From: a virus
Lineage: Duplodnaviria > Caudoviricetes
Reading direction: 5' to 3' (one strand)
Length of the DNA: 38,102 nt
IMG/VR virus record: IMGVR_UViG_3300048599_000143
Location: 1 to 38,102 of that record
Shown here: positions 11,911 through 38,102 of the stretch, in pieces
How positions within the stretch are numbered: position 1 is the first letter of the stretch
Layout of the letters: every line of letters begins with the position of its first letter
Translations under genes and position numbers: made by a program
Notes under the pieces: model-generated
Told to the model about the DNA's origin: nothing
The model's input: only the letters and a program-made list of their open reading frames with translations
Database searches by the model: none

Positions 11911-12345
11911 ATGACTACCGCGCGCCGCTGGTTTCTCCACCACATCAGCGACGTCCTCGGCTCGCCAGACGATCGCACCGAGGTTCTCCTGCCGACTACG
12001 AGCCAGGCTATCTGCCCTGTTGGGTGCGCGCGGTCGGCGAGCCGAAGTCATGGGCGTCGAGTTGGCGTGCACGGATCTGCGGCGCAGCCTGGGTCCTGTG
12101 CGGCAAGGCCATCGCCCTGCAATGGCCGATGGGCCGGGCAGCTCGAGCTCGCCTATTACGGCAAGCCCGATGATCCGCGGGAGGAGACGGCCGAGGAATT
12201 GAAATTCCGGGAGTTCTTCGAGGGTCCGCAACGGACGCCGGAGCAGATCCGAATGTTCGAAGCTGCTCGAGGCGATATCGAGCGGATCACTAATATTCGG
12301 CCGATCCCAATCATCAACTTCCGTCGAAATGGAGAGCCAACATGA
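11911..12345 (+). CDS. Hypothetical protein, probably with an internal pair of compensating frameshifts
   Basis: Protein-like ends in frame 1; protein-like middle in frame 3; ATGA overlap with the ATPase gene. Confidence 0.55.
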   Translation: MTTARRWFLHHISDVLGSPDDRTEVLLPTTSQAICPVGCARSASRSHGRRVGVHGSAAQPGSCAARPSPCNGRWAGQLELAYYGKPDDPREETAEELKFREFFEGPQRTPEQIRMFEAARGDIERITNIRPIPIINFRRNGEPT

Positions 12346-14231: not shown

Positions 14232-16000
14232 GACATCCCATTCCGCGTGAAGCGTTGGACGATCGGCTCGGCTTCATCGGCACGTCGGGCTCGGGCAAGA
14301 CCTACAATGCCGGTACCGCCATCGAAATCCTGCTGTCGAACAAGCATCGCGTCGTCATCATCGACCCGCTCGGGGTGTGGTGGGGCTTGCGGCTCAATGC
14401 CGACGGCAAGAGCAAGGGCTTCGACATCGCGATCTTCGGCGGACCGCATGGCGACCTGCCGCTGACCGAAAACGCCGGCGCGCTGATCGGCGAGACCGCG
14501 ATCGGCATGAAGGAAAGCTGCATCATCGATCTGAGCGAGCTCAAGACGCGCTCGGCCGAACGCCGCTTCATGGTCGCATTTCTCGAAACGATCTATCGCA
14601 AAGCTTCCGGTGATCCCTTCCACCTGGTCGTGGACGAGGCCGACCTGTTCGCACCGCAGCGGCCGCAGGCAGGCGACGAGGTCCTGCTTGGGCACATGGA
14701 GAACATTGTTCGCCGCGGCCGGGTGAAGGGGTTCATCCCGTGGATCATCTCTCAGCGGCCGGCGGTCGTGAACAAGAACGTGTTGAGCCAGGTCGATGGC
14801 CTGCTCGCGTTCAAGCTCACATCCGTGCAGGACCGCGACGCTCTCGATAGCTGGATCGAGGGGCAAGCCGACAAGGCGGTCGGTAAGGAAATCAAGGCGT
14901 CGCTGCCGGCGCTGCAGATCGGCCAGGGCGTGGTCTGGCTGCCCGGCCATCAGATCCTGCGCACCGCGGACTTCCCGAAGAAAGCGACCTTCGACAGCTC
15001 GCGGCGTCTGAAACGAGGGGAAAAATCGAAGGCCAAGGCGCTCAAGCCGCTCAACCTCGATGCGCTGAAGACAAAGTTGGCCGCCGTCGAGGCCGAGCAC
15101 AAAGCCGACAATCCGAAAGCGTTGCGCGCGGACAAGGCGAAGCTGCTCGCGGAGAGGGCCGCGCTCGATCGCCAGATCGAAGCTCTCAAGAAAGCGGTAC
15201 CGAAGGCCGATCCCGATGCGATCCGGAAGGCTCAAGAGCAAGGCTTCGAGACCGCCAGAAAGAAGCTGGAGAACAAGTTCAAGCGCGAGCTCATCAAGGC
15301 GAAGCGCGAAGCTTTGACCACCGTGGCGGCCGAGTTGACGAAGTTCGCCAACATCGTCGGCCAGAGCCTCAAGAACTTCGATGTCGAGGACAAGGCGCTC
15401 GCGATCGAGTTTGATGTTCCGCCCGTCGCGCCGTCACGCGTGACAGTGCCCCGCCCCGTGACAAGCCTCCCACCCCAAACACCGTCCCCGGCCAAGCCTG
15501 TTACCCCGATCGCCGGCGACGGCAGTTTCACCGCCCCGCAGATGAAGGTCCTGCGCTCGCTCGCGATGTGGAGGGCGCTCGGCCACGACAGCCCGACCCG
15601 TGAAATGGTCGCGGCAGCGTCCGGCTATAGCCCGTCCTCGGGCGGCTTTAATAATCTTCTCGGCGGTCTCGCCACGATGGGCGCGATCGGCAAGCCGATG
15701 CCCGGAACGGTGTCCCTCCTGACCGAAGCCGCCGACATGACGATCGACGAAGGCCGGGCGATGCTGTGGGGCAATCTCAGCGCTCCGCAGCAAAAGCTCG
15801 TCTCGGCGCTGGTCGGAGTGGCCGAGGCCTCCCGCGAGCAGCTCGGCGAAGCCACCGGCTATTCCGCGTCTTCTGGCGGGTTCAACAACCTGATCGGCTC
15901 GCTGAACACCCTCGGCATCTTCGTGAAGCCGAAGCAGGGCTATGTGGCGCTCTCCGGTTGGGCGCAGGAACTGCTCGGCGGCATGGCGGAGGCGGCATGA
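14228..16000 (+). CDS. Second HerA/DUF87 ATPase with a coiled coil and two C-terminal winged-helix repeats
   Basis: GTSGSGKT, IIDPLG, VVDEAD, RRGRVKG, SQRP; duplicated GYS.SSGGFNNL.G.L motif. Confidence 0.88.
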   Translation: MRHPIPREALDDRLGFIGTSGSGKTYNAGTAIEILLSNKHRVVIIDPLGVWWGLRLNADGKSKGFDIAIFGGPHGDLPLTENAGALIGETAIGMKESCIIDLSELKTRSAERRFMVAFLETIYRKASGDPFHLVVDEADLFAPQRPQAGDEVLLGHMENIVRRGRVKGFIPWIISQRPAVVNKNVLSQVDGLLAFKLTSVQDRDALDSWIEGQADKAVGKEIKASLPALQIGQGVVWLPGHQILRTADFPKKATFDSSRRLKRGEKSKAKALKPLNLDALKTKLAAVEAEHKADNPKALRADKAKLLAERAALDRQIEALKKAVPKADPDAIRKAQEQGFETARKKLENKFKRELIKAKREALTTVAAELTKFANIVGQSLKNFDVEDKALAIEFDVPPVAPSRVTVPRPVTSLPPQTPSPAKPVTPIAGDGSFTAPQMKVLRSLAMWRALGHDSPTREMVAAASGYSPSSGGFNNLLGGLATMGAIGKPMPGTVSLLTEAADMTIDEGRAMLWGNLSAPQQKLVSALVGVAEASREQLGEATGYSASSGGFNNLIGSLNTLGIFVKPKQGYVALSGWAQELLGGMAEAA

Positions 16001-19475: not shown

Positions 19476-22400
19476 CTATTTCGAAAGCGCCTCGGCTTTT
19501 TCCTGTATTTTCCGCTTCTTGGCGACGATCTCCGAAATCGCCTTGTTGAATTCCGTCTCCGAGATGAGCCCGCGCTGCTGGCGCCGGCCGAGTCGCTGCA
19601 CTTCCTCGTTGAGCGCCCGGTCCACTCGCTTGAGCTCGATCGCCTTCCACTTCATGGCGTCCTCGACATCCTGCGGCTTGAGCTTGATGCCGACGGAGGA
19701 TGCGAGCGCGAGTGACACCGAATACGGCCGGCCGGCGGAATCGGTCGCGCCCTTCACCGCATTGGCGACGCGATCCCAATAGAACGAATTCGGGACATAG
19801 GCTGCCGACGGCACCCACGACTTGTAGAGATGGTCGGCGCGCTTCTTGCCGCGGTCCCACCAATCGTCTGTCTTGGTGTTGACGATCTCGTTGCCGGTGA
19901 AGGCTTGCCGGTTGAGGAACAGCTCGGCGCCGATCATCAGCGGCCCGCCGAAATTCAGCCAGGCCGGCAGGTCGCCCTGCGACAGATCGAAGATATCGCC
20001 GGCAGGGATCCACCGCCGGATGTCGAGGAAGACCGGATTTTTGTGCCGGTCGTTGAACGGCATGCGCGTCATCCGCTCGGTGCCGATCCAGGTGCGGCCC
20101 TGCTCGTTCTCGCGCAGGCTCTTGCGTTCCTTGTCCTCGTCTCCGCCGGTCAGCGCGTAGGCCATCGCGTTCAGCACATAGGCGATCGTGAAATACTTCG
20201 CGAGCTTCCACGGCCGCGTCGCCACCGCTTTGGCGACCAGCGGCGCCGCCCGGTAGGTATAGGAGATGAAGGGCAGGATCGAGTTGCGCGCCATGTTCAC
20301 CCACGGCGCGCGGATGTCGTAGTCGATGAACTGCTCGCGCGCCATGTCGGCTGCGGCCTTCGCATCGTCGCCCAGCGCCCGGCGACGCATATAGGTCGCC
20401 ATCCGGAAAACCTCGTCTTCGACCCGGTAGGCGTCGATCATCTTCTTGTCGAGCGCCTTGAGCTTCGACCACAGCAATTCCGTCACGCGTGACACCGCGC
20501 CGAGCGTGCCGAGCTGGTTGCTCTGCTGGAACGTGTTCTCGCGCATGATCTCGTCGAGCACGGGCTTGAGCACCTGCTCGCGGACTTCCTGCGTCATCAT
20601 GTCGGCGCCGAAGGCTCCGTGCCGGAATGCCTCCTCGTAGTTCTCGTCGCCTGCGAGATAGGAGCGGATGCCGTCGGCGAGGTCCTGCATGCGCACGTCG
20701 ATCATGTCCATCAGGACGAAGTTCGACATCACGTTGTTCATGTGCACCACCGGCGAGCGCGCGGTCTTGTTGAGCTTCCATTGCGTCAGCAACGTCCGCC
20801 ACACGTTCGGCCGCGACATCACGTCGATCTCGTTGAGGTCGCGCCAGATTTCCTCGCGGACATATTTGCCGGCGAGCGCGCCCCACCGCTTCTTGCCGCC
20901 CGAATCCGGGATCTCGGTCGTGGGCACCTTCACCCACTCGACATTGCCGCGCTTCACGTAGCGCTGGCCCTGCGCGCTCCATTCCGCCGCATCGAGCGTC
21001 ACGCCGGACGGCGGCTGCGAAGTTGCCCAATCCTCGTTTTCAGCGATGTCCTTCAAGAACTTGCCGACCGACAGATCGTGCGCCATCAGCATGAAGGTCT
21101 TGCCGATGGTGTAGCGCGCGTCGAGGATTTCGCCCATGCGGGTGCGCTCCTCCTTGGTGAAGTCGCGCCAGAGCGTGATCTTGCCGCCCTTCGCGCCGCG
21201 AACTTCCCATATGCCCTGATTGCGGAAACGCTCATAGCGATCGGGGATCGCCTGGTCGGCAGGCCAATAGACGGTGCGGATCGGCTTCTCGGTGGCGCGG
21301 TTCTCGTCCAGCTCGAGCGCGCCCTGGTCGGGCATCTCGTCGAGCCGGATGAAACGCTCGCCGTTCTGCGGCGCGCCGCGCTCGGCTTCGACCCAGCCCG
21401 GCACATTCTTCATCAACTGGCCGACATGGACCTCATGGAAGATGCCGCGGCCACGGAGCTGGTCACCGATGATCTTCTTGCGGCGGTTGCCCATGATGGC
21501 GTTGACCATCCGGACAAGCCCGTTCTGCTCCGCCTCGTACTTCTTATAGACCCGGTGAAGATAGGTGCCGCGATTGCGTTCGAAGCTTTCGGGTGACACG
21601 AGACCCAAGCCCACCGCCTCCTGGCCGAGATGGTCGACGGCGGCGCGGATCGGCTCCGCCAAAGCGCCCATCTGACCTTCGCTGACTTCCTCGCCGGTGA
21701 GGATTGCCTGCAGGACCTTGGCCTCCTGCGGGCCGACAGCATGATCCTTGAGCGAACGCAGGACCTCGGCGCCCTGCATCATCACCGCGCGCTCGTCCAG
21801 CGCCCGCTCGCGTTCCCGCGTGACATAGTCGTCGGCGAGACCGTAGCGATCGACCAGGCCCGCGCGTGCCACTTCAAGCCACGGATTGGCGAAGGCGAAG
21901 CGGCCCTCCACGGAGAATTTCGCGGTCGTGATGGCGCGAGAGGCGGCATCGAACAGCCGGGCGCCCGGCTTCCATGTGCCGTCGTAGTCGGTGCCGCCGA
22001 ACCAATCGAATGGCATGCGGATCGCGCGATCGAGGAATTGCCCGCGCGCGAGGAAGCCCTGCATGACCGCCTGACGTTCGATCGCGGTCTGCGGATCGCG
22101 GCGCAGCGAGAAGACTTCGTCGGAATCGTCCGGCTTGGTCAGCCCTTCGGGCGCCGTGCCTTTTTTGGACTGGGACTCGTCATCGGGCGAAAGCTCCCCT
22201 ATATTGGAATCGCCGGGACCGCGGTGTTCCAATCCTGGATCGCGTACTCGAAGGGTATCCTTCTCCGCACCAGCGATCCGCGCGTCCCGGTCTTTTGACA
22301 AATCATAGAACAGATGGCCGTCGCGCATTTCGCGAACCGTCAGAATCACGTCGATCGTTCGCCTGCCCACCTCTACGGCTCCGCCGAATTTGTGGATTGC

Positions 22401-25400
22401 CTTGATGTCGTTTCGGCCGCGATCGTCGGGCTGCTCGCCAAGATAGCGCCCGGTTTCAAGGAGATCAGGAATTGCCGGGAAGATACGCAACAAATCTTCG
22501 CCCTTGCCGACGCTCGCCCTTTTCAATCCCTGCCAGCCAATCCTGATTGTCTTGCCAGTCGCCTTGTTGACAACCTCGCGGTTGGCAAGATTCGCGCGGG
22601 CATATCTCGATGCCAGCTGACGCAGATGGCCGAGGCTGGACGCCTTCCCCAACTCGTCACCGGTGAGCGTTGCAGCGACCGGCGAAGGTTCGCGCACCGC
22701 GAACATATCGCCCTGCATATTTGGTTCCTCGAACAGCGGCAGGCCGCCGGTCCCCCTTTGCGATTTCCTTCCCCGCTTCGGGTTGCCCTTGAGCCGCTCC
22801 TTCTCGCTGATGCGCTCGGCGCCGGGAATGATGAGCTGCTCGCGCGGGCCGTCCGGGGTTTGCACGATCTCGGACTTGAACAGGTCGCCGTCGCCGGAAG
22901 GCACGGCATAGGCAACCGCGCCCTGCTGCGACCATTGTCCAGACGCGCTGTCCCGCGGCTGCGAGCGCCGGCCGATGTCGCCGCGATCGATGCTGCGGAA
23001 GATGTCCTCCGCGGCCCTAAAACCATTTCCGCGCAGCGCGTTGCCGAGCACCTGGAGAAAATCAGTAATGCGCTTGAACAGCCGGGCGATGCGGCCGTCG
23101 ACCTGCATTTCGCCGGATTGCCACGCGGCATAGGCGTGTGCGACCGCCTCCTCCGTCTTTACCCATTCCGGCCAACTGTCATAGCGGCGGCCGATCTCGA
23201 ACTTCTGGCGCCAGACTGGCGCCGCGCGCGTCAGGATCGACCATTCGGCCGGTGTGAACAGACCCTGCCGTCGGATCGCATGCAGCGCCTCATGATGGAG
23301 CGTCTTGAACTTGTTCTCGGTATCGAGCGCGATGGTGATGACGTTTCTCAGATACATACCGTCCGCGGTGATGAGCTCGCCATTGACCCATCGTTCGATC
23401 GTGTCCTCGAACTTGAGCGCGACCTTGCCGAGCCCGATGCGTTTGAGTTCGCGGCTCAGATGGGTGTACGTGCTTTCACGCCGACCGAGGAAACTCTCGT
23501 TGAACGGCGTGCGCAGGCGCGTGTCTTCGGGATTGTCGCGCAGCGCGAAGGCGCTTTCCGCGGCATCGTCGGCAGATTGTCCGCGTTCGAGGAGTTCGGT
23601 CGCCGGCCGGTATTGCGTGATGGCCTTGATCGCCTTCTCGCCGGCAGCCGGCTCGGTCGGGATGAAATACCGGAGCCGATGCTGGATCATCTCGGTGAAC
23701 GCGCCGTCCTGCTTCGCCTGCTGGCCCTCCGAATAGCTGGACGGGCCTTTGAGCTCGATGCGGTTCTGATCGGCGACGCGCGCGCGGTAGAGCGTCCAGC
23801 CGTTGGCGAGCGTGGCGCGCCCGCCATCCATCAGCGCCTTGAACAGCTCTGCCGGCGTGACCTTGGGCGCCTCGGCCTCGGTGCCGAGCGCGCGCAGCGT
23901 GGTCGAGACATAGCCCTGCGGGATGACGCGGCCGATGAACTGTTCGCCGGCATCGGTCTGGAGCCGCACCACGCGCGCGGATCCTTTCAGCCGGTCCCAG
24001 ATCGGCAGCACCGCCCCCGAGATCAAATGCAGCGGCTCTTCCAGAAATTCCGGGGCGGCGTCGATTTCCTTCTTCCAGTGATCCTGCGCCTCGTCCCGCG
24101 CCAGGCGCGACCAGCCCTTGCCGTTGTCGACCTTCTCGCGTTCGGTCACGCGTGACGGAGAGATCGGATTGATGAGCCGGTAATAATCAACGATCTTGCC
24201 TTTCTCGTCGGTGAGGCTTGAGGCTTCCGCCACGGCATAGACCTTGCGGTTCGGGGACAGCACGTAGAACTTGACCGGCCGCGACTTCGAATCTGCGACG
24301 TCGTTGAAGGCAAGTGCCTTGAAGCGGTTCGACAGGGTGAATTTGACGTATTTGGTCTCGGCCGCGGTGTCTTCGACCGTGTGAACCACCTTCTCCATAT
24401 CCTTGACGATCTTGTCGGCGCGCACCGTTTCCAGGCCGACATCGAGCAGCCCCGCCTGCTGGCGCGCCTCGATGACGCGATCGAGCCGCTCCGAGAATGC
24501 ATCGAACACGCGGTTCTGCATCTCGATCTTGAGGGAAAGCAGGCGGTTGAGGAATTGCGTGATCGGCGGCACGTCCTCTTTCGCGCCGAGCACCCGGCCC
24601 TCCTCGTCCTTGTTGCGGAGCGAGAGCCCGGTCTGCTTCTCGAATTCGTCGACCGTGATGCCTTTGATGTTGTCGCGCAGCAGGTCGTTGTAGAATTGCC
24701 GCAGCGCCTGCACGGCCTCGGTGCTTTCGAGATTATCGCGCGCGGAGAAGATGCCCTGGTCGCCCGCCTGGCGCTGACCCTTGGTCAGGGCGCCGAGCTG
24801 CGCCAGCCGCCGCGCGATCGAGGAGATGAAGCGCTTCTGGCCCTGCAGGTCGGTCGTGACCAGCCGCACCATCGGCGCCGACGCCTGATTGGTGCGATGG
24901 GTGCGGCCGAAGCCCTGCACCGCCTTGTCGGCGCGCCAGCCGCCCTGCACGAGGTAATGCGCACGCCGGGCATTCTTCGAGGGCGCGGTATTGTCGGCAT
25001 GATAGGAGCGGCCGGTGCCGCCGGCCTCGGAGAACACGAGAATTTTCTTCGTGCCGGCCTGGAAAGCATCGGTCTCGGCAAGGTTCGCAGATCCCGGACG
25101 CGAATCCTCGACCCGCTTTCGCTGGCCGGTCTTCTCGTCCTCTTTCAGGATGAAGCGACGGCCGCGGCCGGTGACTTCCGCCACCACGTCGGCGCCGAAG
25201 TGATCGAGCACCATGTCGAGCGGACCTTGCGGCACGCGCACCGATGCCAGCCGCTCGACCAGCGCATCGCGCATGCGGACGGCCTGCTTGTTCTGGACCG
25301 GCTCTCCGTTCGAATCCGTGACCGGACGGGAGCGGACTTTCTCCTTGCCGTCCACGATCTCGGAATATTGCTCATACTCCTGCGTCGGGAATGACCGCTC

Positions 25401-28400
25401 CACGAGCTGGATGATCTGGTCACGCGGCGTGATGTCGAGGTCCTCGATCTCCTCGGCCGTGGTGGCCTTGGCCGCGGCGCGCTCCTGCGACGCCTCGTTG
25501 GTGTTGGTGAGCTGCAGCACCGCCTGCCGGCCGGCAGCAAGATCGGCTTCCACCGCCTTGATGACAGAGGGCATCTGCATCGACGTGATGATCTGGTTGA
25601 AGAAGCGCTGATGCGCGCCCCAGAAGGCAGAGAGTGCCGCGGATTTCGCGCGGGCGTCCTTGTTGCCGCCGGTCAGCTCGAGCGCGGCGGTTATGTTGCC
25701 GAGAACGCCTTGCCACGCCTCGGCGAGCGTGTCGTAGATTTCACGCTGGTTGTCGTCGAGCTTGTGCTCGATGCGATCGTATTCGACGCCGTCATAGGAC
25801 AGGTTGCGCGCGGTATAGAGGCCGAGCTGCTTCATGTCGCGCGCGATGAGCTCCATCGCGGCAATGCCGCCCTCTTCCACATCGGCGATGAACTTATCGC
25901 GCGACGCAAACGGCGTTCCACGGCCCCACAATCCGAGGCGGGAGCCATAGGCAAGGTTCTCGACTTCGGTCGCGCCGGTCGCCGAAACATAGACAACGCG
26001 AGCGTTGGGCAAGGCTTCCTGCAATGCCATGCCGGCGAGCGCCTTTTGAGCGGCATCTTTCTGGCCGCGCTCGGTCTTGCCGCCGGTCGCATTGCCCATG
26101 TTATGGGCTTCATCGAAGGCGATCACGCCGTCGAAGTCCTTGCCGAACCATTCGACAAGCTGATCGACGCGGGACTTGACCTGCACCTGCTCCAGGGCCG
26201 TGACCTCGGGGGCGGGAACGGTGATGCGGGTCTTGTTGTCGAGATCGATGGTGATGTTCGCCGGGCGCTTCGAATTGCCGGGCTCGACCTTGGCGACAAT
26301 GCCGCGCTGGCCGTTCACCTTGACCTTCTGCTTGCGCACGAAGGAGCCGCGCGCGATCGCGGCCTGATCCGACATACCGCCCTTGAGCGTGTCATAGGTC
26401 ATGAAGGCGATGCCGCGCGCGCCCTGCACCGGCTCGCCGGTCTTCACCTTGCCGGCGTTGAAGACAAGGTTCGGGTCCTGGCCGAGCCCCTTCCAGTCGC
26501 GCTTGGCGTCGCTGAAAAGCGTTTGTTTCTCGGAAATCCAGATCGCCTTGCGGCGACCCTGCATCCAGTTATCGAGGATGATCCCGGAAATCTCGCGACC
26601 TTTGCCGACGCCGGTGCCGTCGCCGATGAAATAGCCGCGGCGCTTCGGCGTCTCGCCGTCGGCCGCCGGCAGCATCTTGGAATGCGCCTGCCCGGCATAG
26701 ACCGTGGTCTCGAGCTGGGCGAGCGAAAGCAGGCCATCGGCGATGACCTTCTTCGGCACATGCGGTTCGTAGGTCACCGGCGGCGGCGACACCGACGCCA
26801 TCGAGGCGGATTCGACGAGCGGCCCGGGGTGCGGCTTTGCGCCCTTCACCCGCACGCGCTGCGGCTCGTAGGATTGATACAGGCTTTCGTTGATCTCGGA
26901 AGCGCCCTGCTTGCCGGGATCGACGCGTTCTAGTCCGACCCGCTCGCCGACGGCTGCAGCGCCGGATTGTCCGCTACCTGCCTGCTCCAGATTGTTTCGA
27001 GCAGCCGGAACGCCGCCATTTCCGCCTTCGGCGCGGTCTGCAGGACGTGCAGAAGATTGCTTTCCTGTTCCTCGCGATCCGGCCCGTTCGGGTTGCTGGT
27101 CAGCCACCCCATCACGCTGTCCGGGCTCCACGCGAACATCTGCGCCAGTTGCTCCTCCAGCGGATATATCTCGGCTGTCGGAACGACCGCGTCCTCCAAC
27201 CCCCACTCCGCCAGTTGCAGCAGGTACAGACGGTGATCCTCGATCGGTGCTTGCGGCTTCGCCTCGCGCAGCCATTCCAGCGCCAGTTGATTGATCGGCT
27301 CGCTGTTCTGCGGAAGCGTTCGGGCGGCCATCGCGGATCGGCTCCAAGGCGCGCATCAGGTCTTCGACCGTCTGCGCTTCGGTCAGCACCGGCTTATGCC
27401 CCGCCGGCGGCGCAACCTTATCTATGACCAGTAAACGAGTGCCGAAAGTGGTGCCGTATTTCTCGTAGACCTTGCCCGAGACCCCGATATTGGCCTGCAC
27501 GGTGTTGGCCTTGGCGATTCTGTTCCACCACACCCGATAGGCCGGCGCGCCCTTCGTGAAGCCGCCATTGACGATCGCGACCAGGCGCCCGCCATCTTCG
27601 AGCCGGTTGAGCGCGGCCTCGATGTGGTTGGCGGCCACCATCGGCACCTTCTGATTTCCCATGCGGCCGGCGGTCTGCGAGAACGGCGGGTTCATCACCA
27701 CCACCGTCGGCTTCACGTCGTCGGGTAGAATGTTGTCGAGCTGCTCGGCATCTTCGGTGAAGACGCGCCCTCGATCGCCGACAAGACGGCGAAGGAGCGG
27801 CACGCGGCGCTGTGCGAGCTCGTTGACAAAAAATGTCAACCCGGGCCGCGACGCCGCCGCGACCAGGGAACCGGTACCGGCCGACGGCTCCAGCATGCGG
27901 TCACCTTCGCGGAGGTTCGCGGCATAAGCGGCGGCCGCCGCATAATGCGGTGGCGTCGAGAATTGCTGATAAGCAACCTGCTCCTCGTCGCGCACGCGCT
28001 GCGTCGGCAGGCGATTGAGCATCTCGGACAGCCGCGTGTTGGCGGATTTCCAATCGCCTCGATCGACCCGCAGTTCGGCGTCGTCGCGCACCATGATGTT
28101 GACGGCGAGCTCGAGCGCGTCCGCCATGTCCTTGCGGTTGAACTTGCCCTCGGAAAGCTTCGCCTTGTAGGCGCGCTCGGCCGCCTCTTGCAGATCCTTC
28201 TGTGTGATCCGGCGCCCCGCCATCAGGAGACCGACCAGCGACGTGGCAAGATCCAGCGCCGGCAGGTTCGACATCGGACCGGCTTCGGCTTCCGCCATAG
28301 ACGACTGCGCCCCGGACTGGCCGGGGCGTTCATCGCGTGCTGCAGGTTTAGGTTCGGGCGGCGCCGGCGGCGGCGCTCCGGACCTCGTGGCTTCCGCCTC

Positions 28401-31400
28401 CGCTTGCTGCTTGCCCGTCACATAGCCAGGCTGGATCATCTTCGCGATGACCTTGCCGAATTGCGACCAGTATTCGGGATCGGCGTCCTTGATGGCCTGC
28501 GGCGTGGCGGCGAGAACCTTCTTCGCTTCACGCGCGGCGTCCATCACTGCCTTGCGGTCGCCGGCTTCCACCGCTTCCTCGATCTTGTCGAGTGCGGCTT
28601 CGATCGCCTTCGAGGCGCGGTCCTGCTCATCCTCGGCGGGAAGCGGGATGCCCTTGACGGTCTCGGCTTGCTGGACGATCGGCGGCTCGTCGCGGCGCGG
28701 GCCTTCCACCCGCTCGGCGGCTTTAGCCCCGCTGGCGTCTGGTTCTAGCTGGTCACCTTCTTGCGGCTGTTCAGCGCCACGAGGTTCTGCGCCAGGCGGC
28801 GGGCCTCGCTCTTGTCGGCCGCCTTCATTCCCGGCTGGCCGTTCGCGCGCCGGCGGAGGCTCTGCGCGAGGCGCATCCTCTGCTGCGGTATCAAGCGCTG
28901 ATTGGGACCATTCATCGCCGAGTCCTTTTTCGGTTGCGGATTGTACCTGATCTGCCTCGAACTTCACAGCGGCACGCTCGATCACATCGGTGAGCGCGTC
29001 GATTGGGTCAGCACCATTGACCAATACGGCCTGCGCGGCCTCCGCGATCTCTTCGTCGGTGAGCTTGGCACCGAGCTCGCGGCCGGCGGCGCGCACCTGG
29101 TCCTTTGCTTCGGAAACCCGGGCCTCTTGCTCCTCGGCCTGGCGCTGCGCCTGCCGATCGGCAGCCGCCTGCTCGTCGGCGATCGAGAACACCTTGGCGC
29201 CGCGGGCTTCGCGGTCGAAGGCTTCGAGCAGCTCGCTGATGTCGGCGCCGCCGTTGCGCAGATAGCCGGCTTCCGCCGCCGCCTCGCGCGCGCGGTCGAG
29301 GCTCATGCCGCCCCGACGAACGAGCGCGCCGAATCCGGGAACGAACACGCGGCCAAGACCGAGATAGCCGAGCTCGCCACCCTGTTCGGCGATACCGCCC
29401 CGGGAAGCAATGAACTGGAAAAGCGATTGCGGGCCGAGCTGCGGGGTGCGCTGGATGCCGCCCTTCGTCATGCGAAGGCCCGGATGGCCGCTGCCGACCA
29501 TGCGGCCGAGCACCTGCCGCACCACGCCCGGCGTCACGCCGAGCGTCTTGCCGAGCACCTTCGGATCGAGCGTTTGGCTGCGATCGGCGATCAGCTTCGT
29601 CAGTCGGGAGAATTGGTCACGCGTGACGCCGGCATGCACCGGCTCGCGATAGGACAGTGCTTTCGTGGTCTCGCCGTCCTTCGCCCAGGACTTGAAGCCC
29701 GCAACCGGCATGGCCTTGATGCCGCCGATCCGGTCCGGTCCCTTGCCGTCCGAGAACGCGCCTTCATATGCAGCGCGCGCAGCAGCTTCGCTGTCGAAGC
29801 CCTGCATGATCTTGTGCTCGTCGAAAGCGTCGGTCGCGGTGTCGATCTGATCGATGATGTAAACTTGCGACGCCTTCGGATTCGGCCCGATGAAGACATC
29901 GAGCGCGTCGCCATCCTTGCCCTTGGTGCCAAGGACTTCGCCGTAGGCCACCGGCATGGTGACTTCCCACGGGTTCGGATCGCCCGGCTTGGACCGGCGA
30001 ACACCGCCGGCCTCGGTCTCGATCGTGATGTCGAGCCCTTCCCATTTCAGGTGGCGCTTGCGGTAATTCCCGGCTTCGGCCTGCGCGGGCGTCGGATCGG
30101 CGGTCTGCTCGGCACCGAGCGCGACGTCGGACGGTTGCTCGAGCTGCACCGGCGTCTGCTTCGTACCGGCCGCGGGCGGGATGCGAACGTAGGTTTTGCC
30201 GCTCTCGTGCTTGAACTCCATGCCGGCCGCGCCAGTCACGGGATCGGGCACCATATTGGCGCTACCGATCGAGCCTCGAACCTCCTGCCAGTCCGGCGAG
30301 ACGCGGAAATTCTTCGACCACGCGTCGGCCGCCTCGATTTCCGCCCGCATCTCATCCGCGCTGCGCGGATCCGCGAGCATCTTCTCCAGCGTGAAGCGGC
30401 TGGTCGGCGGCAGCGGCTCGGCCTCGATGATGTTGTTCGCGCGATTCCAGTCTTCGACCGCGGCGCGATTCTCGGGCTGCTGACGCCAGACTGCGTAGTC
30501 CTCGTCGGACATGCCCCACGGGTTGCCGTCCGCAGCGGTCCATGGCACCTGCTGGAAGCTCGTGGGATCGATCGGCGGCAGCACTTCGCCTTCGAGCGGC
30601 GCGGCAAGATTCGCGACAGTCGGTGTCTGTGCACCGACATCTTCCGCCGGTAGCGGTGCTGCTGCGGTTTTGGCCACGGCTCGCGTCAGCGTGCCATGCG
30701 CCGGGATCGGTTCCGGCTCGATCGCCGCCGCAGGAAGCACGGCGTCGGCAGGCACAGCCTGATCCAGATTCACTGGCTGAAGTCCGGACACATCGAGTGT
30801 CGGCGCTTGCGCGTTTTGCGCGCCCTTGCCCTCCGCAGCCGAAAACGTACCTGAAGTACCGCCTCCGACGATCATGCCGACCGCGATGTTGCGCGGCACG
30901 TCCTCCAACAAATCCTGATCCGGCTTGTAGATACCGCGCGCGATGGCGTTCTGGATGAACTGCTGCAAGCCTTCCTGGCCGCCTTCGGCGAGCGCGCCGG
31001 CAACGGCGGCATAGCCGACACGGCCGATAAGCCCGAGTGCCTTGCCGGTGGAGCCCAGAGCGGGAAGCAGCGCGTCCACCACATCGGTGGCGCCAGCGAT
31101 CGTGCCGAAACGCGCCGCTTGCTGGATCTGCTCCGGAGTGGCGCCGGCCTTCACCGCGCGATCGGCGGCTTCGCCCTGCCCGCTGGTGACGAACATCAGA
31201 CCGGCGGCCGCGGGGCTGAGCAGCGACATGCCGATGCCACCGGCGACCGAGCCGAACCCCGAGCCGATGTCGCGCGTCCAGGACCGGCCTTCGAAGCCCG
31301 GTCGCGGCGCGAGCGCTTCCTTGCCGAGGTTCTCGATTGCCTCACCCGCCTGCCATACCGGGTCCTGTGTGAGCGGCGGAATCGGTGGCGGAGCTGCCCG

Positions 31401-31742
31401 CACCGTCTCCACCGCGGCGGCCGGGTCCTCGCCCGCTGCCACGCGCTCGATGCCAGCGCCGAGGCCCGCGCGTTCTTGCGCGCCCAGGCCGAGCGATTGC
31501 GAGGCGGCGATGCCTTTCAACGACGATGCAGGAAGGTTCTTCGCGCCTTCGACAAAGCTCTTGCCCAATTCGACCGGATAGTCGGACAGCGACGTCGTGA
31601 CGTTTTCGGCGCGCATCGGCGTGAGGCCGCTCACGTCGAGCGGTTTCAGGCCGCTATTGTCGAGCGGCGCCTGCGCGGAATCGACCGGCGTGAGGCCGCT
31701 CGTGTCGAGCGGTCTCAACCCGGTCACATCGAGCTGTGACAT
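19476..31742 (-). CDS. Giant DarB-like polyvalent virion/ejection protein (iPPase-like, N6-MTase, strawberry-notch SF2 helicase, zincin, LPD-like domains)
   Basis: AGNYRKRH...DGDALDVFIG...DEHK (~30100-29700); EPSAGTG and MNPPF (~27890-27680); GDGTGVGKG and FDEAH (~26630-26100); QGFGRTHRTNQ; HHEALH...EEAVA (~23300-23140); follows the ejection genes. Confidence 0.92.
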   Translation of the reverse strand: MSQLDVTGLRPLDTSGLTPVDSAQAPLDNSGLKPLDVSGLTPMRAENVTTSLSDYPVELGKSFVEGAKNLPASSLKGIAASQSLGLGAQERAGLGAGIERVAAGEDPAAAVETVRAAPPPIPPLTQDPVWQAGEAIENLGKEALAPRPGFEGRSWTRDIGSGFGSVAGGIGMSLLSPAAAGLMFVTSGQGEAADRAVKAGATPEQIQQAARFGTIAGATDVVDALLPALGSTGKALGLIGRVGYAAVAGALAEGGQEGLQQFIQNAIARGIYKPDQDLLEDVPRNIAVGMIVGGGTSGTFSAAEGKGAQNAQAPTLDVSGLQPVNLDQAVPADAVLPAAAIEPEPIPAHGTLTRAVAKTAAAPLPAEDVGAQTPTVANLAAPLEGEVLPPIDPTSFQQVPWTAADGNPWGMSDEDYAVWRQQPENRAAVEDWNRANNIIEAEPLPPTSRFTLEKMLADPRSADEMRAEIEAADAWSKNFRVSPDWQEVRGSIGSANMVPDPVTGAAGMEFKHESGKTYVRIPPAAGTKQTPVQLEQPSDVALGAEQTADPTPAQAEAGNYRKRHLKWEGLDITIETEAGGVRRSKPGDPNPWEVTMPVAYGEVLGTKGKDGDALDVFIGPNPKASQVYIIDQIDTATDAFDEHKIMQGFDSEAAARAAYEGAFSDGKGPDRIGGIKAMPVAGFKSWAKDGETTKALSYREPVHAGVTRDQFSRLTKLIADRSQTLDPKVLGKTLGVTPGVVRQVLGRMVGSGHPGLRMTKGGIQRTPQLGPQSLFQFIASRGGIAEQGGELGYLGLGRVFVPGFGALVRRGGMSLDRAREAAAEAGYLRNGGADISELLEAFDREARGAKVFSIADEQAAADRQAQRQAEEQEARVSEAKDQVRAAGRELGAKLTDEEIAEAAQAVLVNGADPIDALTDVIERAAVKFEADQVQSATEKGLGDEWSQSALDTAAEDAPRAEPPPARERPAGNEGGRQERGPPPGAEPRGAEQPQEGDQLEPDASGAKAAERVEGPRRDEPPIVQQAETVKGIPLPAEDEQDRASKAIEAALDKIEEAVEAGDRKAVMDAAREAKKVLAATPQAIKDADPEYWSQFGKVIAKMIQPGYVTGKQQAEAEATRSGAPPPAPPEPKPAARDERPGQSGAQSSMAEAEAGPMSNLPALDLATSLVGLLMAGRRITQKDLQEAAERAYKAKLSEGKFNRKDMADALELAVNIMVRDDAELRVDRGDWKSANTRLSEMLNRLPTQRVRDEEQVAYQQFSTPPHYAAAAAYAANLREGDRMLEPSAGTGSLVAAASRPGLTFFVNELAQRRVPLLRRLVGDRGRVFTEDAEQLDNILPDDVKPTVVVMNPPFSQTAGRMGNQKVPMVAANHIEAALNRLEDGGRLVAIVNGGFTKGAPAYRVWWNRIAKANTVQANIGVSGKVYEKYGTTFGTRLLVIDKVAPPAGHKPVLTEAQTVEDLMRALEPIRDGRPNASAEQRADQSTGAGMAARGEAASTDRGSPSVPAATGGVGVGGRGRSDSRDISAGGATGADVRVEPGQRDGVADQQPERAGSRGTGKQSSARPADRAEGGNGGVPAARNNLEQAGSGQSGAAAVGERVGLERVDPGKQGASEINESLYQSYEPQRVRVKGAKPHPGPLVESASMASVSPPPVTYEPHVPKKVIADGLLSLAQLETTVYAGQAHSKMLPAADGETPKRRGYFIGDGTGVGKGREISGIILDNWMQGRRKAIWISEKQTLFSDAKRDWKGLGQDPNLVFNAGKVKTGEPVQGARGIAFMTYDTLKGGMSDQAAIARGSFVRKQKVKVNGQRGIVAKVEPGNSKRPANITIDLDNKTRITVPAPEVTALEQVQVKSRVDQLVEWFGKDFDGVIAFDEAHNMGNATGGKTERGQKDAAQKALAGMALQEALPNARVVYVSATGATEVENLAYGSRLGLWGRGTPFASRDKFIADVEEGGIAAMELIARDMKQLGLYTARNLSYDGVEYDRIEHKLDDNQREIYDTLAEAWQGVLGNITAALELTGGNKDARAKSAALSAFWGAHQRFFNQIITSMQMPSVIKAVEADLAAGRQAVLQLTNTNEASQERAAAKATTAEEIEDLDITPRDQIIQLVERSFPTQEYEQYSEIVDGKEKVRSRPVTDSNGEPVQNKQAVRMRDALVERLASVRVPQGPLDMVLDHFGADVVAEVTGRGRRFILKEDEKTGQRKRVEDSRPGSANLAETDAFQAGTKKILVFSEAGGTGRSYHADNTAPSKNARRAHYLVQGGWRADKAVQGFGRTHRTNQASAPMVRLVTTDLQGQKRFISSIARRLAQLGALTKGQRQAGDQGIFSARDNLESTEAVQALRQFYNDLLRDNIKGITVDEFEKQTGLSLRNKDEEGRVLGAKEDVPPITQFLNRLLSLKIEMQNRVFDAFSERLDRVIEARQQAGLLDVGLETVRADKIVKDMEKVVHTVEDTAAETKYVKFTLSNRFKALAFNDVADSKSRPVKFYVLSPNRKVYAVAEASSLTDEKGKIVDYYRLINPISPSRVTEREKVDNGKGWSRLARDEAQDHWKKEIDAAPEFLEEPLHLISGAVLPIWDRLKGSARVVRLQTDAGEQFIGRVIPQGYVSTTLRALGTEAEAPKVTPAELFKALMDGGRATLANGWTLYRARVADQNRIELKGPSSYSEGQQAKQDGAFTEMIQHRLRYFIPTEPAAGEKAIKAITQYRPATELLERGQSADDAAESAFALRDNPEDTRLRTPFNESFLGRRESTYTHLSRELKRIGLGKVALKFEDTIERWVNGELITADGMYLRNVITIALDTENKFKTLHHEALHAIRRQGLFTPAEWSILTRAAPVWRQKFEIGRRYDSWPEWVKTEEAVAHAYAAWQSGEMQVDGRIARLFKRITDFLQVLGNALRGNGFRAAEDIFRSIDRGDIGRRSQPRDSASGQWSQQGAVAYAVPSGDGDLFKSEIVQTPDGPREQLIIPGAERISEKERLKGNPKRGRKSQRGTGGLPLFEEPNMQGDMFAVREPSPVAATLTGDELGKASSLGHLRQLASRYARANLANREVVNKATGKTIRIGWQGLKRASVGKGEDLLRIFPAIPDLLETGRYLGEQPDDRGRNDIKAIHKFGGAVEVGRRTIDVILTVREMRDGHLFYDLSKDRDARIAGAEKDTLRVRDPGLEHRGPGDSNIGELSPDDESQSKKGTAPEGLTKPDDSDEVFSLRRDPQTAIERQAVMQGFLARGQFLDRAIRMPFDWFGGTDYDGTWKPGARLFDAASRAITTAKFSVEGRFAFANPWLEVARAGLVDRYGLADDYVTRERERALDERAVMMQGAEVLRSLKDHAVGPQEAKVLQAILTGEEVSEGQMGALAEPIRAAVDHLGQEAVGLGLVSPESFERNRGTYLHRVYKKYEAEQNGLVRMVNAIMGNRRKKIIGDQLRGRGIFHEVHVGQLMKNVPGWVEAERGAPQNGERFIRLDEMPDQGALELDENRATEKPIRTVYWPADQAIPDRYERFRNQGIWEVRGAKGGKITLWRDFTKEERTRMGEILDARYTIGKTFMLMAHDLSVGKFLKDIAENEDWATSQPPSGVTLDAAEWSAQGQRYVKRGNVEWVKVPTTEIPDSGGKKRWGALAGKYVREEIWRDLNEIDVMSRPNVWRTLLTQWKLNKTARSPVVHMNNVMSNFVLMDMIDVRMQDLADGIRSYLAGDENYEEAFRHGAFGADMMTQEVREQVLKPVLDEIMRENTFQQSNQLGTLGAVSRVTELLWSKLKALDKKMIDAYRVEDEVFRMATYMRRRALGDDAKAAADMAREQFIDYDIRAPWVNMARNSILPFISYTYRAAPLVAKAVATRPWKLAKYFTIAYVLNAMAYALTGGDEDKERKSLRENEQGRTWIGTERMTRMPFNDRHKNPVFLDIRRWIPAGDIFDLSQGDLPAWLNFGGPLMIGAELFLNRQAFTGNEIVNTKTDDWWDRGKKRADHLYKSWVPSAAYVPNSFYWDRVANAVKGATDSAGRPYSVSLALASSVGIKLKPQDVEDAMKWKAIELKRVDRALNEEVQRLGRRQQRGLISETEFNKAISEIVAKKRKIQEKAEALSK
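26930..27331 (-). CDS. Putative overprinted gene (+1 frame) inside the giant gene, 133-aa acidic helical protein
   Basis: Globular composition; GGAG 10 nt before ATG; lies in the G/A/R/S-rich linker of the host frame. Confidence 0.65.
   Translation of the reverse strand: MAARTLPQNSEPINQLALEWLREAKPQAPIEDHRLYLLQLAEWGLEDAVVPTAEIYPLEEQLAQMFAWSPDSVMGWLTSNPNGPDREEQESNLLHVLQTAPKAEMAAFRLLETIWSRQVADNPALQPSASGSD
28745..28915 (-). CDS. Putative overprinted gene (+1 frame) inside the giant gene, 56-aa basic helical protein
   Basis: AAAGGA 7 nt before ATG; MNGPNQRLIPQQRMRLAQSLRRRANGQPGMKAADKSEARRLAQNLVALNSRKKVTS; occupies a disordered linker. Confidence 0.55.
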   Translation of the reverse strand: MNGPNQRLIPQQRMRLAQSLRRRANGQPGMKAADKSEARRLAQNLVALNSRKKVTS

Positions 31743-34583: not shown

Positions 34584-35180
34584 TCATGTCAGTTTTGGAA
34601 AAAGGATGACGTCGAATGACACCGTGTTGCCGACGCCAGGCGCCGCGGCAGTGGTGAAGGTGAAGCTGTCGGCTGCAACGCTGATGCGCGTCACCACGAA
34701 CGCGCTGGCGGCCGGCGCGCCGCTGAAATCCTTGGTGGTCGCCAGCACCACATATTCCGCGCTCGCAGGCTTCTCGCCGTCGCCGAAGACGTAGGTGAGC
34801 TGGTTGTTTGTGCTCGCGAGTTGCAGTGTCTTCTGAAAGAAGGCCGCGGTGCGCGTCAGCTCGCTGTTCGCCTGCGTTCCGAGCTGGAACGCCTCATTCG
34901 CGGTGAGCTGGGCCTGCGCGATCGTGGTGTTGGCCGGATCGGGCAGATTGTCGGGCTCGAGCTCGGCGGATTGCGCCTGATAGGTCGGATCGAGCAGCCC
35001 GCTCTGCACCACCGCCGCCTGGTAGAACTGATGCAGATAATCGTTGAGGATTTTCGCGTCCGCATTGTAATCGCCGGTCAGGCGTGGCGGCGTCTGGATC
35101 GTTGTCTCGTTGCGCGCGCGCTGCGTCGTTTGCTGCGCGGGCTGGCTGTCGGCTGCGGCCGTCGAGACGTCATCCGCCAT
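34584..35180 (-). CDS. Putative tail accessory protein
   Basis: Coupled to the gp10-like gene; beta-rich C-terminal domain. Confidence 0.7.
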   Translation of the reverse strand: MADDVSTAAADSQPAQQTTQRARNETTIQTPPRLTGDYNADAKILNDYLHQFYQAAVVQSGLLDPTYQAQSAELEPDNLPDPANTTIAQAQLTANEAFQLGTQANSELTRTAAFFQKTLQLASTNNQLTYVFGDGEKPASAEYVVLATTKDFSGAPAASAFVVTRISVAADSFTFTTAAAPGVGNTVSFDVILFPKLT

Positions 35181-36598
35181 CAGTGACCGACCTTGTCGAC
35201 TTGCGCCTCGGCCTTGATCAGGTCGATCGGGCAGTTATCGGCCGATGAAATCTCGAAGGCGAAGCTCGACCCGAGCCCGAAGCCGCCGAAATAAACGAAA
35301 TGCAAGGTGTCCCCGGCCTTGCCGAGCGAGCGTGTGATCCACGGACCGTAGGGGCGGCCGTCCCGGCTGCAGCGCACGCGAATGGTCGGCGCGGTCTGCG
35401 AGGTCCCGAGGCCGCGGCGGATCCGCAACCGGAAATCCTTGATCTGCAAATCCGTGGCTTCGGCGATGTAGGCGGTGCGCACGAGCCAGCGCTGCAATCC
35501 GTTGCCGTGACGGAAATAATTCGGGTCGAGCTCGTAGAGCTTGCCCTCGCCGCCTACGAAATGCTTGTTCCAGAGCGTCCAGTGCGACCAGCCCGGCCAG
35601 CGGTTCGGCGCGCCGTTCGCTTCGTCCCACCCATAAAGCGTCGAGAAGCGCTTGTTCTTGTAATCGTAGAGCAGCGTCACGCCTTTGGTGCCGTATTCGT
35701 TCGTGGCGTTGGGCGCCTGCAGCACCATAAACTTCTGCCCGACGATATGCAGGGGCCGGTCCGGGAAGCCGCCGAGCCAGGCGTCGGACCAATCGTCGAT
35801 CGCTTCCAGCAGGCGTCCGATCTCGTTGGAGGCCGCGGCCGAGGTCTGGCCCGAGAAGCGCACGAATTCGGTGAGCGCGTTGATGGTCCACAGCGCGTTG
35901 TCAGCAAACAGCATCACATAGGGAAACTTCACGCCATCGCCTACCGACCAGCGCCGGAAGAAAGGGATGCTGCCCGTCGGATTGCGCTCGAACTGCTCCA
36001 TCGAGCTCTCGCCGCCGAGCATGATCTCGCGGAAAGGCGTGATCATCAGCGAGTTGATGTTGTCCGGGTTGCCGTCAGCCGAAAACGTATCGAGCGGGTC
36101 CCACTGATCGGGCTTGCCGGGTGGCGAGTGATAGAAGCGGCCGGAATTGAGCTCTACCGCGATGGTGAAATCATCCATCCATCCGATATGGGTGGCGAGC
36201 GGTGCGTCCTTGGAAAGGAGCTCGCAAGCCTGATCGCGCAGGCGCACGATCGGCCCGCCGGCAGCCATCAGCAATTCGCGGTCGGTCTTCTGGAAGATGA
36301 TGCGCCGGCCGCCGGACACCGGCACGCCGGGGATTTCTGCCACCGCATAGTCACGCGTGACACGGTGAATGCGGCCCTTGTCGGTGCCGGCGATCAGATC
36401 GCCGTTGTGGTCGTTCAGATAGATGCGCGAATTGCCCCCGAAATCCGCGATTTCGCGCATGCCGGGGAACCGCGACTGGCCGTTCAGATCGTTGACGTAG
36501 CCGTTCTCGATCGCGGTCTGATAGCCGACGACGGCTTCCGGATGCAGGTTTGCGTACAGCCCCTTATCCAGGGGGAGCGGCACCCAATCTTCAGCCAT
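35180..36598 (-). CDS. P22 gp10-like DNA stabilization/tail hub protein
   Basis: PD.I...GE.S.E.F; S.EI...L; TLLYD....F; S.DG..YG.W...LG..G...LG..F.FEI pattern; start MAEDWVPL at 36598 (TGATG overlap). Confidence 0.78.
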   Translation of the reverse strand: MAEDWVPLPLDKGLYANLHPEAVVGYQTAIENGYVNDLNGQSRFPGMREIADFGGNSRIYLNDHNGDLIAGTDKGRIHRVTRDYAVAEIPGVPVSGGRRIIFQKTDRELLMAAGGPIVRLRDQACELLSKDAPLATHIGWMDDFTIAVELNSGRFYHSPPGKPDQWDPLDTFSADGNPDNINSLMITPFREIMLGGESSMEQFERNPTGSIPFFRRWSVGDGVKFPYVMLFADNALWTINALTEFVRFSGQTSAAASNEIGRLLEAIDDWSDAWLGGFPDRPLHIVGQKFMVLQAPNATNEYGTKGVTLLYDYKNKRFSTLYGWDEANGAPNRWPGWSHWTLWNKHFVGGEGKLYELDPNYFRHGNGLQRWLVRTAYIAEATDLQIKDFRLRIRRGLGTSQTAPTIRVRCSRDGRPYGPWITRSLGKAGDTLHFVYFGGFGLGSSFAFEISSADNCPIDLIKAEAQVDKVGH

Positions 36599-38102
36599 CA
36601 GGATGAGACCACGTTGACGTCGCCGGTCCACTCGACCGTCTGGCTGGCGTCGCCGATCACTCGCAATTCGATCTCGCCGACATTTGCCACGAAGGCGCAA
36701 TGCCAGTTGGCGTTGGTCTCGATGATGGGGGTGACACGGTTGTCGGCGAAGGCGAGCAACCCGTCGGCGACGCCGTTGCCGGTCACGCCATTGCTCAGAT
36801 TCTCGTTGTCGACGAAGGCGCCGTGAATGTCGTTCAGCGTCAGCGTGCCGGTCGCGCCTCCGTCGCTCTGCGAGACGAGCTTCGCGGTAGCGCCAGAAGT
36901 CGCGCCGGTGATCGTGTCGCCATTGGTGAAGTTCGAGGATTGCCCGTCATAGGCGAGCGTCGCAGCGCTCTTGATCTTGACGTTCGGCGACGAAATCGAA
37001 CCGTTGACGGTCGCGGAACCGCCGGCGCCATCGGTGATGATCTCGTTGTCGACGAAGGTGCCGGTGATGTCCTGAAGCGTCAGCGTGCCGGTCGCGCCTC
37101 CGTCGGTATCCGCTGTGATCCGGGCGCTGGCGCCCGACGTTGCGCCGGTGACGACATTGCCGACCGTGAAATTGCCGGTCTGGGCTTCGTACGCGAGTGC
37201 GGCGCCTGGACGCTCGGCCGCGATCGCCAGATGATAGAAGCCGACATTGACCCCGTTGCGCTGGCGGCCGATGACCTTCGCCTCCAGATAGACCTTCTGC
37301 CCCGGCCGAAGCGGCATGCCCCATGCCTTGGTCGCGGCATTGCCGGTGGTGACGCCGGAGGCCGATCCGCGATCGAAGCTCTTGGAGCGCAGCCAGGCGG
37401 TCGCGGCGCCTGCGATCGAGACGCCGGAGATTTCCCGGCAATCCTGCACGAGGATGTTGTTGCGCGGCGTGGTGATGGTGATCGCCACGTCCTGAAATGA
37501 CATGCGGCGGAAGGCGAGCGCTTCGACATTGCCGGTGAGGGCGATCGAGCCGTCCTTCATCGAGCCGCCGAGGAATTCCAGGCCGACCACGGTGTTCTCG
37601 GTCGTTTCGGGAACGCCGTCCTCGACCGAAAGGTTGACGGTGTTGTCCTCGAACCAGGCGTCGATGAAGGATGTGGCGCGTGCGCCGACGATCTTGACCG
37701 CGGTGCCGGTGTTGCTCTCCAGCCCGAGGTTGACAAACTGGTTATGGGTGCAGGCGAGGTCCTTGTTCTCAAGATCGATCGCGGCGCCCGTGCACAGGTC
37801 GATCTTTCCGCCGCGCCACACGTTGAACCGCAGCACGCCGCCAACGCCAGCCGCGTTCTCGCCATAAGCCTTGTAGCCGGTGACGCATTGCTGGACGAAC
37901 AGGTCATTCCATGCGCAAAGCGCGCCGCCCTTGCGGGAAAGGCCGGTCTCAAAGCGCTTGATCTCGGCGTCGTTGAAAACGATCTCGTCCTTGTTCTCGG
38001 CAAGGACGCCGATCGAATTGCCGACCAGCGTCACCCCATCGAGCGTCAGCCGGCAGAAGCCCGCCCTCTTGCCGCCGATCGTCACCACGGTGCCAGCCTG
38101 CG
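36598..38102 (-). CDS. Tailspike-like (parallel beta-helix) protein, 5'-truncated by the window
   Basis: Frame is open to the window end; N/G/I/V beta-helix-like region; duplicated C-terminal module. Confidence 0.65.
   Translation of the reverse strand, partial: QAGTVVTIGGKRAGFCRLTLDGVTLVGNSIGVLAENKDEIVFNDAEIKRFETGLSRKGGALCAWNDLFVQQCVTGYKAYGENAAGVGGVLRFNVWRGGKIDLCTGAAIDLENKDLACTHNQFVNLGLESNTGTAVKIVGARATSFIDAWFEDNTVNLSVEDGVPETTENTVVGLEFLGGSMKDGSIALTGNVEALAFRRMSFQDVAITITTPRNNILVQDCREISGVSIAGAATAWLRSKSFDRGSASGVTTGNAATKAWGMPLRPGQKVYLEAKVIGRQRNGVNVGFYHLAIAAERPGAALAYEAQTGNFTVGNVVTGATSGASARITADTDGGATGTLTLQDITGTFVDNEIITDGAGGSATVNGSISSPNVKIKSAATLAYDGQSSNFTNGDTITGATSGATAKLVSQSDGGATGTLTLNDIHGAFVDNENLSNGVTGNGVADGLLAFADNRVTPIIETNANWHCAFVANVGEIELRVIGDASQTVEWTGDVNVVSS

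Follow-up and report, generated by a model that had tools for sequence, protein, structure and literature searches.

A 133-codon open reading frame enclosed in a giant phage gene, in its +1 frame and on the same strand (26930..27331, minus strand; ATG to TAG), is very probably a real protein-coding gene, with a probability of about 0.97 as judged from the comparisons laid out below. The evidence for the gene is its codon pattern, frame-specific selection and a conserved start, not the length of the reading frame. The window, that is, the whole 38,102-nt stretch of DNA analysed here, is a linear viral record with an estimated completeness of 61%. The nested ORF spans codons 1471-1605 of the giant gene, between an adenine methylase and a Strawberry-notch helicase, and fills the linker between them (codons 1471-1604; 26931..27332, minus strand), which is rich in G, A, R and S and shares its DNA with the nested gene. 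The encoded small protein is predicted to be all-helical, with a pI of 4.4.

The host gene (19476..31742, minus strand) encodes a polyvalent protein of 4,088 aa that comprises, all on the minus strand, an InPase domain (29679..30086) and an LPD3 domain (22305..22628), both found as domain matches, an adenine methylase region (27333..28265, ~aa 1160-1470, with FSTPP, LEPSAGTG and NPPF motifs) and a Strawberry-notch-type SF2 helicase region (24426..26903; AAA_34 and Helicase_C_4; N half at aa 1614-2170, C half at aa 2174-2450). As in polyvalent methylase-helicase dyads, the methylase lies N-terminal to the SF2 helicase, further polyvalent domains are present and virion genes are nearby; a head-closure (connector) gene (35180..36700, minus strand; phrog_578, E 6e-19) stands upstream on the same strand, which places the giant in a virion gene block. 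With its InPase, TP/NPPF methylase, Strawberry-notch helicase, LPD3 and virion neighbours, the giant matches the polyvalent methylase-helicase proteins described in the main text of Iyer et al. 2017 (PMC5512222), according to which phage polyvalent proteins are thought to be packaged and injected; the gene context makes the same fate likely for the giant protein of the window. Its 'DarB-like' PHROG match is confined to the InPase region (aa 517-696), and profiles of the window methylase and helicase gave no domain match on gp69 of Burkholderia phage JC1. At ~22140-22320 (giant codons 3141-3200), just past LPD3, GC3 dips to 0.55-0.57 and the other frames carry no coding signal. Elsewhere in the window, two adjoining HerA/DUF87-type ATPase genes occupy 12342-16000 on the plus strand, the first of which ends in a GcrA-like helix-turn-helix.

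A sequence-only reading had proposed a +1-frame ORF with a GGAG ribosome-binding site, and a Shine-Dalgarno-like GGAG is indeed located at 27342..27345 (minus strand), 10 nt ahead of the nested ATG and inside the last methylase codons (L-E-P-I-R in the giant frame). No sigma-70 promoter was found in 26800-29300. The composition reported in the same reading is likewise borne out. Read in the giant frame, the linker is 60% G/A/R/S, compared with 34% elsewhere in the giant protein, and is devoid of F, W and Y, while its third codon positions are A/T in 57% versus 19%; L, E and W together make up 28% of the small protein versus 17%. Within the whole giant gene, the 133-codon windows with the lowest GC3 fall on the nested ORF (0.42, the lowest non-overlapping window being at 0.59), and the small frame, with GC1/2/3 of 0.69/0.44/0.81, is virtually indistinguishable from the remainder of the giant gene (0.68/0.46/0.81). 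ORF length was dropped as evidence for the gene, since the linker residues by themselves predict an open +1 frame: when these were fixed and the codons redrawn, 84% of trials kept that frame open for the window, and 20-84% did so across six loci.

Frame-specific selection, a check that the earlier reading had proposed, was assessed on the window and five distinct loci, that is, six loci in 15 pairs. Across these, the small frame retained 54% identity with a pN/pS of 0.64, below 1 in 15/15 pairs, whereas the giant frame over the same bases retained 38% identity with a pN/pS of 1.26, above 1 in 15/15; these ratios are uncorrected proportions from diverged sequences, and the pairs are non-independent. 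The flanking methylase and helicase, read in the giant frame, gave 0.35 and 0.38, and their +1 frames contain 2-12 stops per locus. The small protein diverges faster than the enzymes (54% versus 71-72% identity). Its boundaries are nonetheless kept, with TTG GAG preceding the start in six out of six close loci and the TAG stop created by a rare Leu codon of the giant frame, CTA, in five of them.

Searches with the 133-aa protein initially returned eight relatives at 45-59% identity and eventually, at E values of 0.001 or better, a family of 368 cluster representatives. Among 24 loci fetched by the small protein, six (five distinct) carry it nested in an open giant gene, two carry it intact without a giant, and 16 are decayed. 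A wider survey added 128 further loci fetched by the methylase or helicase rather than by the small protein. Filtering reduced 153 loci plus the window to 89 rows, by dropping those that lacked both domain matches or repeated the same 90 bases; two rows have methylase and helicase in different ORFs, and the other 87 were classified by linker. Linkers are 119-249 aa long in 44 loci (which include five originally found via the small protein, the window itself and some near-copies) and 55-62 aa in the remaining 43.

All 44 long linkers contain a +1 ORF of 109-145 codons, with the giant frame open across every one of them. Stops in the nested frame of homologous linkers would have spoken against a gene, and they were encountered in 0/44; by comparison, of 1,379 helicase windows, each 109 codons long, just 67 have an open +1 frame. 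The nested ORF starts two codons before the methylase end in 41 loci, three before it in two and six after it in one, from ATG in 42 and GTG in two. An SD-like motif precedes this start in 43 of the 44, as opposed to 415 of 4,094 other +1 ATGs (a 10% background), and GC3 drops at the nested ORF in all 44. In a clustering test in which two of the 44 ORFs were shortened, 35 joined one family and two groups of three and four loci showed no detectable likeness to it; one of the shortened ORFs, L044, matches the family profile. The proposal of a real nested gene is strongly supported by the selection that acts on its frame, by the conservation of its start, stop and SD motif, by the size of its family and by a confidently predicted fold.

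Short-linker enzymes behave differently. None of the 43 matched the family, their GC3 is near normal, and +1 ORFs, which begin within the methylase and reach at most 91 codons, are present in a few. These enzymes stand alone, with ~1,400-1,600 aa where complete; five of the six loci whose neighbours were scanned adjoin a Toprim gene, as in conjugative elements, and some of the six neighbourhoods also hold ParB, YAcAr or Antirestrict genes. One tree branch separates the long and short classes (42 and 43 rows; two truncated loci of the long class were left out), so that the split amounts to a single contrast. In the sequences compared, whether from phages or from conjugative plasmids, the nested gene thus goes with the large, multi-domain forms of the enzyme. 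Additional searches yielded little: among 401 genomes of the family of G001, three gave a match, of which two had been found before and the third is a piece of 35 residues; annotated phages and plasmids, searched by tblastn with the window protein, gave none; and no longer fusion forms of 274-2,000 aa were found, a result that carries little weight.

Free-standing relatives, which the sequence-only reading had proposed to look for, do exist. L003:173-580 and L004:1535-1960, on contigs of 6.7 and 2.3 kb, have an intact small gene with its own ATG and no giant. The small frame looks constrained in them (pN/pS 0.35 for this one pair), while two stops have been gained in the former giant frame, relics of which persist at both ends. 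Since these relics flank the gene on both sides, the two copies derive from nested ones, and their stops show that an unneeded giant frame becomes closed. Because both are intact and constrained without the giant, the small protein may function where no enzyme is present in cis. The neighbours of L003 and L004 resemble mobile-island remnants. The 16 decayed loci (L006-L021) are pieces of linker DNA on short metagenome contigs, with stops or shifts, that have lost the giant gene as well. In seven such pieces that were inspected, the giant frame for the most part runs on from a start that we take to be signal-peptide-like, as if captured by a host gene.

The sequence-only reading called the gene overprinted. 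Its nesting stands, but the implied direction may be backwards, as the small frame has the ordinary codon pattern of the genome. Atypical codons or residues in the newer frame, a signature of de novo overprinting, were looked for; the small frame proved typical, although present codon use cannot date the frames. In ordinary genes of this phage, the -1 frame is open in 146 of 691 windows of 134 codons, with G, A and R abundant in its translation. Compared with such readings, the linker scored slightly better as a -1 reading (log-likelihood -348) than as frame 0 (-353). From its letters, the giant frame over the nested gene therefore resembles what a normal gene gives when read out of frame, and the 'linker', rather than the small gene, may be the by-product. 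Insertion of a small gene could mimic a linker, given that ordinary genes often leave a G/A/R-rich -1 frame open. Capture of the small gene, or a domain fusion across it, is at least as plausible as a new gene arising on an old linker, the tree being unrooted.

The family also occurs in conjugative plasmids, which were reached through the helicase. The best three of 556 records were opened, namely plasmids of Methylotuvimicrobium alcaliphilum 20Z, Methylomonas sp. LL1 and Thioflavicoccus mobilis; their linkers are 119-144 aa long, and all three harbor a nested family member of 114-117 aa with the same start (E 7e-13 to 2e-7). In the first two the nested product has 114 aa (L161:4636-4977 and L162:4639-4980). 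A fourth plasmid matches too. These nested genes are all missing from the gene table of PLSDB, itself incomplete, and a plasmid copy had no match in annotated phages. In two plasmids the giant comes after genes for a coupling protein, traF and a topoisomerase, and the fetched stretches show transfer genes around the giant and no virion genes. L161 carries ArdC-N, MPTase and Toprim, domains that occur in proteins such as ArdC and TraC1, which undergo transfer together with the DNA (main text of PMC5512222). In the Thioflavicoccus plasmid (L163), the giant gene shifts frame inside the helicase C-terminal region, at about codon 1233. The plasmid enzymes branch within the phage group in a quick tree of 41 rows, and the nested gene therefore appears to have survived a change of delivery route. 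A role restricted to the capsid is unlikely, considering that the same family is nested in conjugative plasmids. Common to both settings would be an enzyme made in one cell and used in another.

An AlphaFold2 model of the small protein consists of seven helices and helices only (pLDDT 93, pTM 0.86). A fold search of PDB and BFVD found no match at E 0.001, the best Foldseek E being 0.74 and the best Z 4.3 (rmsd 2.7, 70 aligned). The ESM Atlas returned an unnamed protein as best hit (0.87), followed by DUF7207 at 0.86, which serves as a lead only. Pfam gave nothing for the window protein up to E 1, TnpV (PF14198) included, and no family common to more than three of 77 members; PHROG gave no match for it either. 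The best-kept columns among 108 sequences are N9, N14, A17, L21, L40, A106 and A107, none of them an invariant residue of catalytic type. Ocr and ArdA are DNA-mimic inhibitors; a similar role was considered here and rejected, as the family lacks a strong conserved acidic surface, with only E46 and E88 acidic in the 33 columns kept at 60% or more. The acidity put forward in the sequence-only reading is the usual state (pI below 6 in 30/34) but not a universal one (pI 4.1-9.2). Since no catalytic-type residue is invariant and acidity is not fixed, the sequences point to a binding protein rather than an enzyme or a DNA mimic.

The giant gene also holds a second nested +1 gene (28745..28915, minus strand), in the linker upstream of the methylase, which encodes a basic 56-aa protein predicted as a helical hairpin. 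Its family comprises eight distinct loci, the window included, and pN/pS is 0.68 in its own frame (below 1 in 15/15) versus 1.26 in the giant frame; the ESM Atlas gave nothing for this ORF. Three database proteins (P0013, P0014 and P0035) join the 56-aa family to the 133-aa family, and P0121 joins a third nested family to the latter; these fusion proteins may be products of deletions. P0013 was modelled with pLDDT 91.5 and pTM 0.67, packing between its parts being unsupported, and its fold search returned generic helical hairpins alone (best Z 6.9, rmsd 3.5, 57 aligned). P0013 loci were not found in viral contigs.

Other +1 ORFs were noted along the way. The third nested family (54-77 aa) lies downstream of the helicase at codon 2538 of L001, 2902 of L034 and 2771 of L040, and was not detected in the window. 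Candidates of 52-113 aa with coding-like codons occur in other giant linkers (L028, L044, L053, L056, L076 and L077). From giant codon 1607 onward, L034 has a 177-aa +1 ORF within the helicase region, across which the giant frame is open; its C-terminal half presumably resembles a very-short-patch-type endonuclease. In cultured Burkholderia phage JC1, the DarB-like gene for gp69 contains two unannotated +1 ORFs, L164:5130-5315 (62 aa) and L164:6804-7139 (112 aa), both with SD-like motifs and at GC3 dips, neither of which matches the nested families described here or Pfam.

We tentatively favour, at slightly less than even odds, a role of the small protein as a donor-side chaperone or safety catch (inhibitor) of the delivered giant enzyme. 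Ribosomes would initiate at the internal SD of the late message that also encodes the giant, and would so yield the small protein alongside it. The small protein, being non-catalytic, would bind the methylase-helicase in the producing cell as chaperone or inhibitor, and would then stay behind or be released on transfer, which would free the enzyme to methylate incoming DNA. Several considerations count against this explanation: the split between long and short linkers is a single contrast, and an embedded gene would travel with the enzyme whatever its role; L003 and L004 are intact and look constrained without the giant; the seven of 44 nested ORFs unlike the family fit a site at which position matters over sequence; and the small protein diverges faster than the enzymes. 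A somewhat unlikely alternative is a real gene that acts elsewhere, be it on a target in the host, on a defence system or on a different protein of the element, its embedding ensuring co-expression and hindering loss, and its linker location following from a flexible spacer that tolerates any sequence. The intact L003 and L004 with stops in the giant frame agree with such an independent role, as do the unrelated ORFs at the same site in those seven loci, the nested ORFs of other linkers and the ease of capturing an arbitrary gene, given that -1 is open in 146 of 691 ordinary-gene stretches. A dispensable passenger would not, however, predict that one family (35/44) occupies the same site both in plasmids and in phages from several phyla, nor was the gene lost in any long-linker locus examined; the free-standing copies, with their giant-frame relics, derive from nested ones.

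It is distinctly less likely that the small protein is a loading factor steering the giant into the capsid, in the way that Ulx and DdrB help to load DarB in phage P1, or a co-delivered cofactor that acts after entry. The giant does sit in a virion gene block, and P1 DarB needs small helpers, of which the 17-kDa Ulx 'aids DarB localization' in the available text of PMC9024508; for Bcep22-like phages no such helpers are known, according to the accessible part of PMC9144972. Against this reading stand the same family in conjugative plasmids, whose fetched stretches hold transfer genes and no virion genes, and the lack of a PHROG match for the window protein. The conserved SD-like motif at the domain border (43/44 loci) might also belong to a translational device, in which a programmed +1 shift at the methylase end yields a shorter fusion or inner-frame ribosomes tune helicase output. 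SD-like motifs can stimulate +1 shifts, as in prfB. This is nevertheless very improbable in view of an initiator codon in 44/44 loci (42 ATG, two GTG) at normal spacing from the motif, a product predicted as a self-contained domain and own-ATG copies that exist apart from the giant. Least credible of all is the absence of any gene, the ORF being a shadow frame of a low-complexity linker. An open frame is expected from the linker residues (P 0.84), and 16 of the 24 loci found by the small protein are decayed, with stops or shifts; yet the decayed fragments lost the giant gene too, and frame-specific pN/pS, ordinary small-frame codons, conserved start, SD and stop, 368 relatives and a confident fold all argue for a gene.

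Genes of this kind have precedents. In Rz1/Rz pairs, the inner gene occupies the +1 frame of the same strand and both products act jointly. The lambda-type arrangement likewise places a whole gene inside another phage gene, as the 'embedded class' of PMC9144972, and embedded genes are thus a known kind (see also PMC6606913; both as far as the available text goes). As in that class, the gene found here lies inside an open gene in another frame, with conserved start signals and purifying selection on its own frame; Rz1, however, is a short lysis lipoprotein, whereas the present product is a 133-aa predicted soluble helical protein in the linker of a 4,088-aa enzyme, and the giant gene, unlike Rz, holds a second nested gene in another linker. 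Bacillus subtilis comS is reportedly a small shifted-frame gene inside the very large multi-domain gene srfAB, on the same message, a likeness that extends to the case described here. ComS, by contrast, is a short peptide whose target is an unrelated regulator, whereas the predicted folded protein is three times longer and fills the linker in 44/44 loci. Class I type III secretion chaperones are alpha/beta dimers; they too are small, usually acidic and encoded at the cargo gene, and the job proposed here would be alike, although the small-protein model is all helices. P1 DarB with Ulx and DdrB offers another parallel, that of a large virion-borne methylase-helicase with small helper proteins, but the P1 helpers are separate genes (both points from the available text of PMC9024508), and the giant of the window has a Strawberry-notch-type helicase and a DarB-like match confined to the InPase region.

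No mention of embedded genes was found in the text covered from PMC5512222. In the literature covered, which excludes most subscription journals and supplements (those of PMC5512222 may bear on this point), no description was found of genes nested in polyvalent-protein linkers. On the sequence evidence, that the gene exists, with a family and fold that are uncharacterised, is close to certain.

Among the anti-restriction strategies of phages and conjugative elements, polyvalent methylase-helicases are a main theme, and the nested gene is a concrete candidate for keeping such enzymes quiet and deliverable in the producing cell. Low-complexity linkers of polyvalent proteins can be second genes that annotation has missed. 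Since plasmids of cultured methanotrophs and of a sulfur bacterium carry the family, its role can be tested without culturing the phage. A broader and rather doubtful proposition is that giant methylase-helicases carry their control proteins inside their linkers, each spacer being the shifted reading of a captured gene, and that a new helical fold silences the enzyme in the donor. If this were true, bacteria with the small gene alone, as in L003 and L004, would own an inhibitor of an invader's anti-restriction enzyme.
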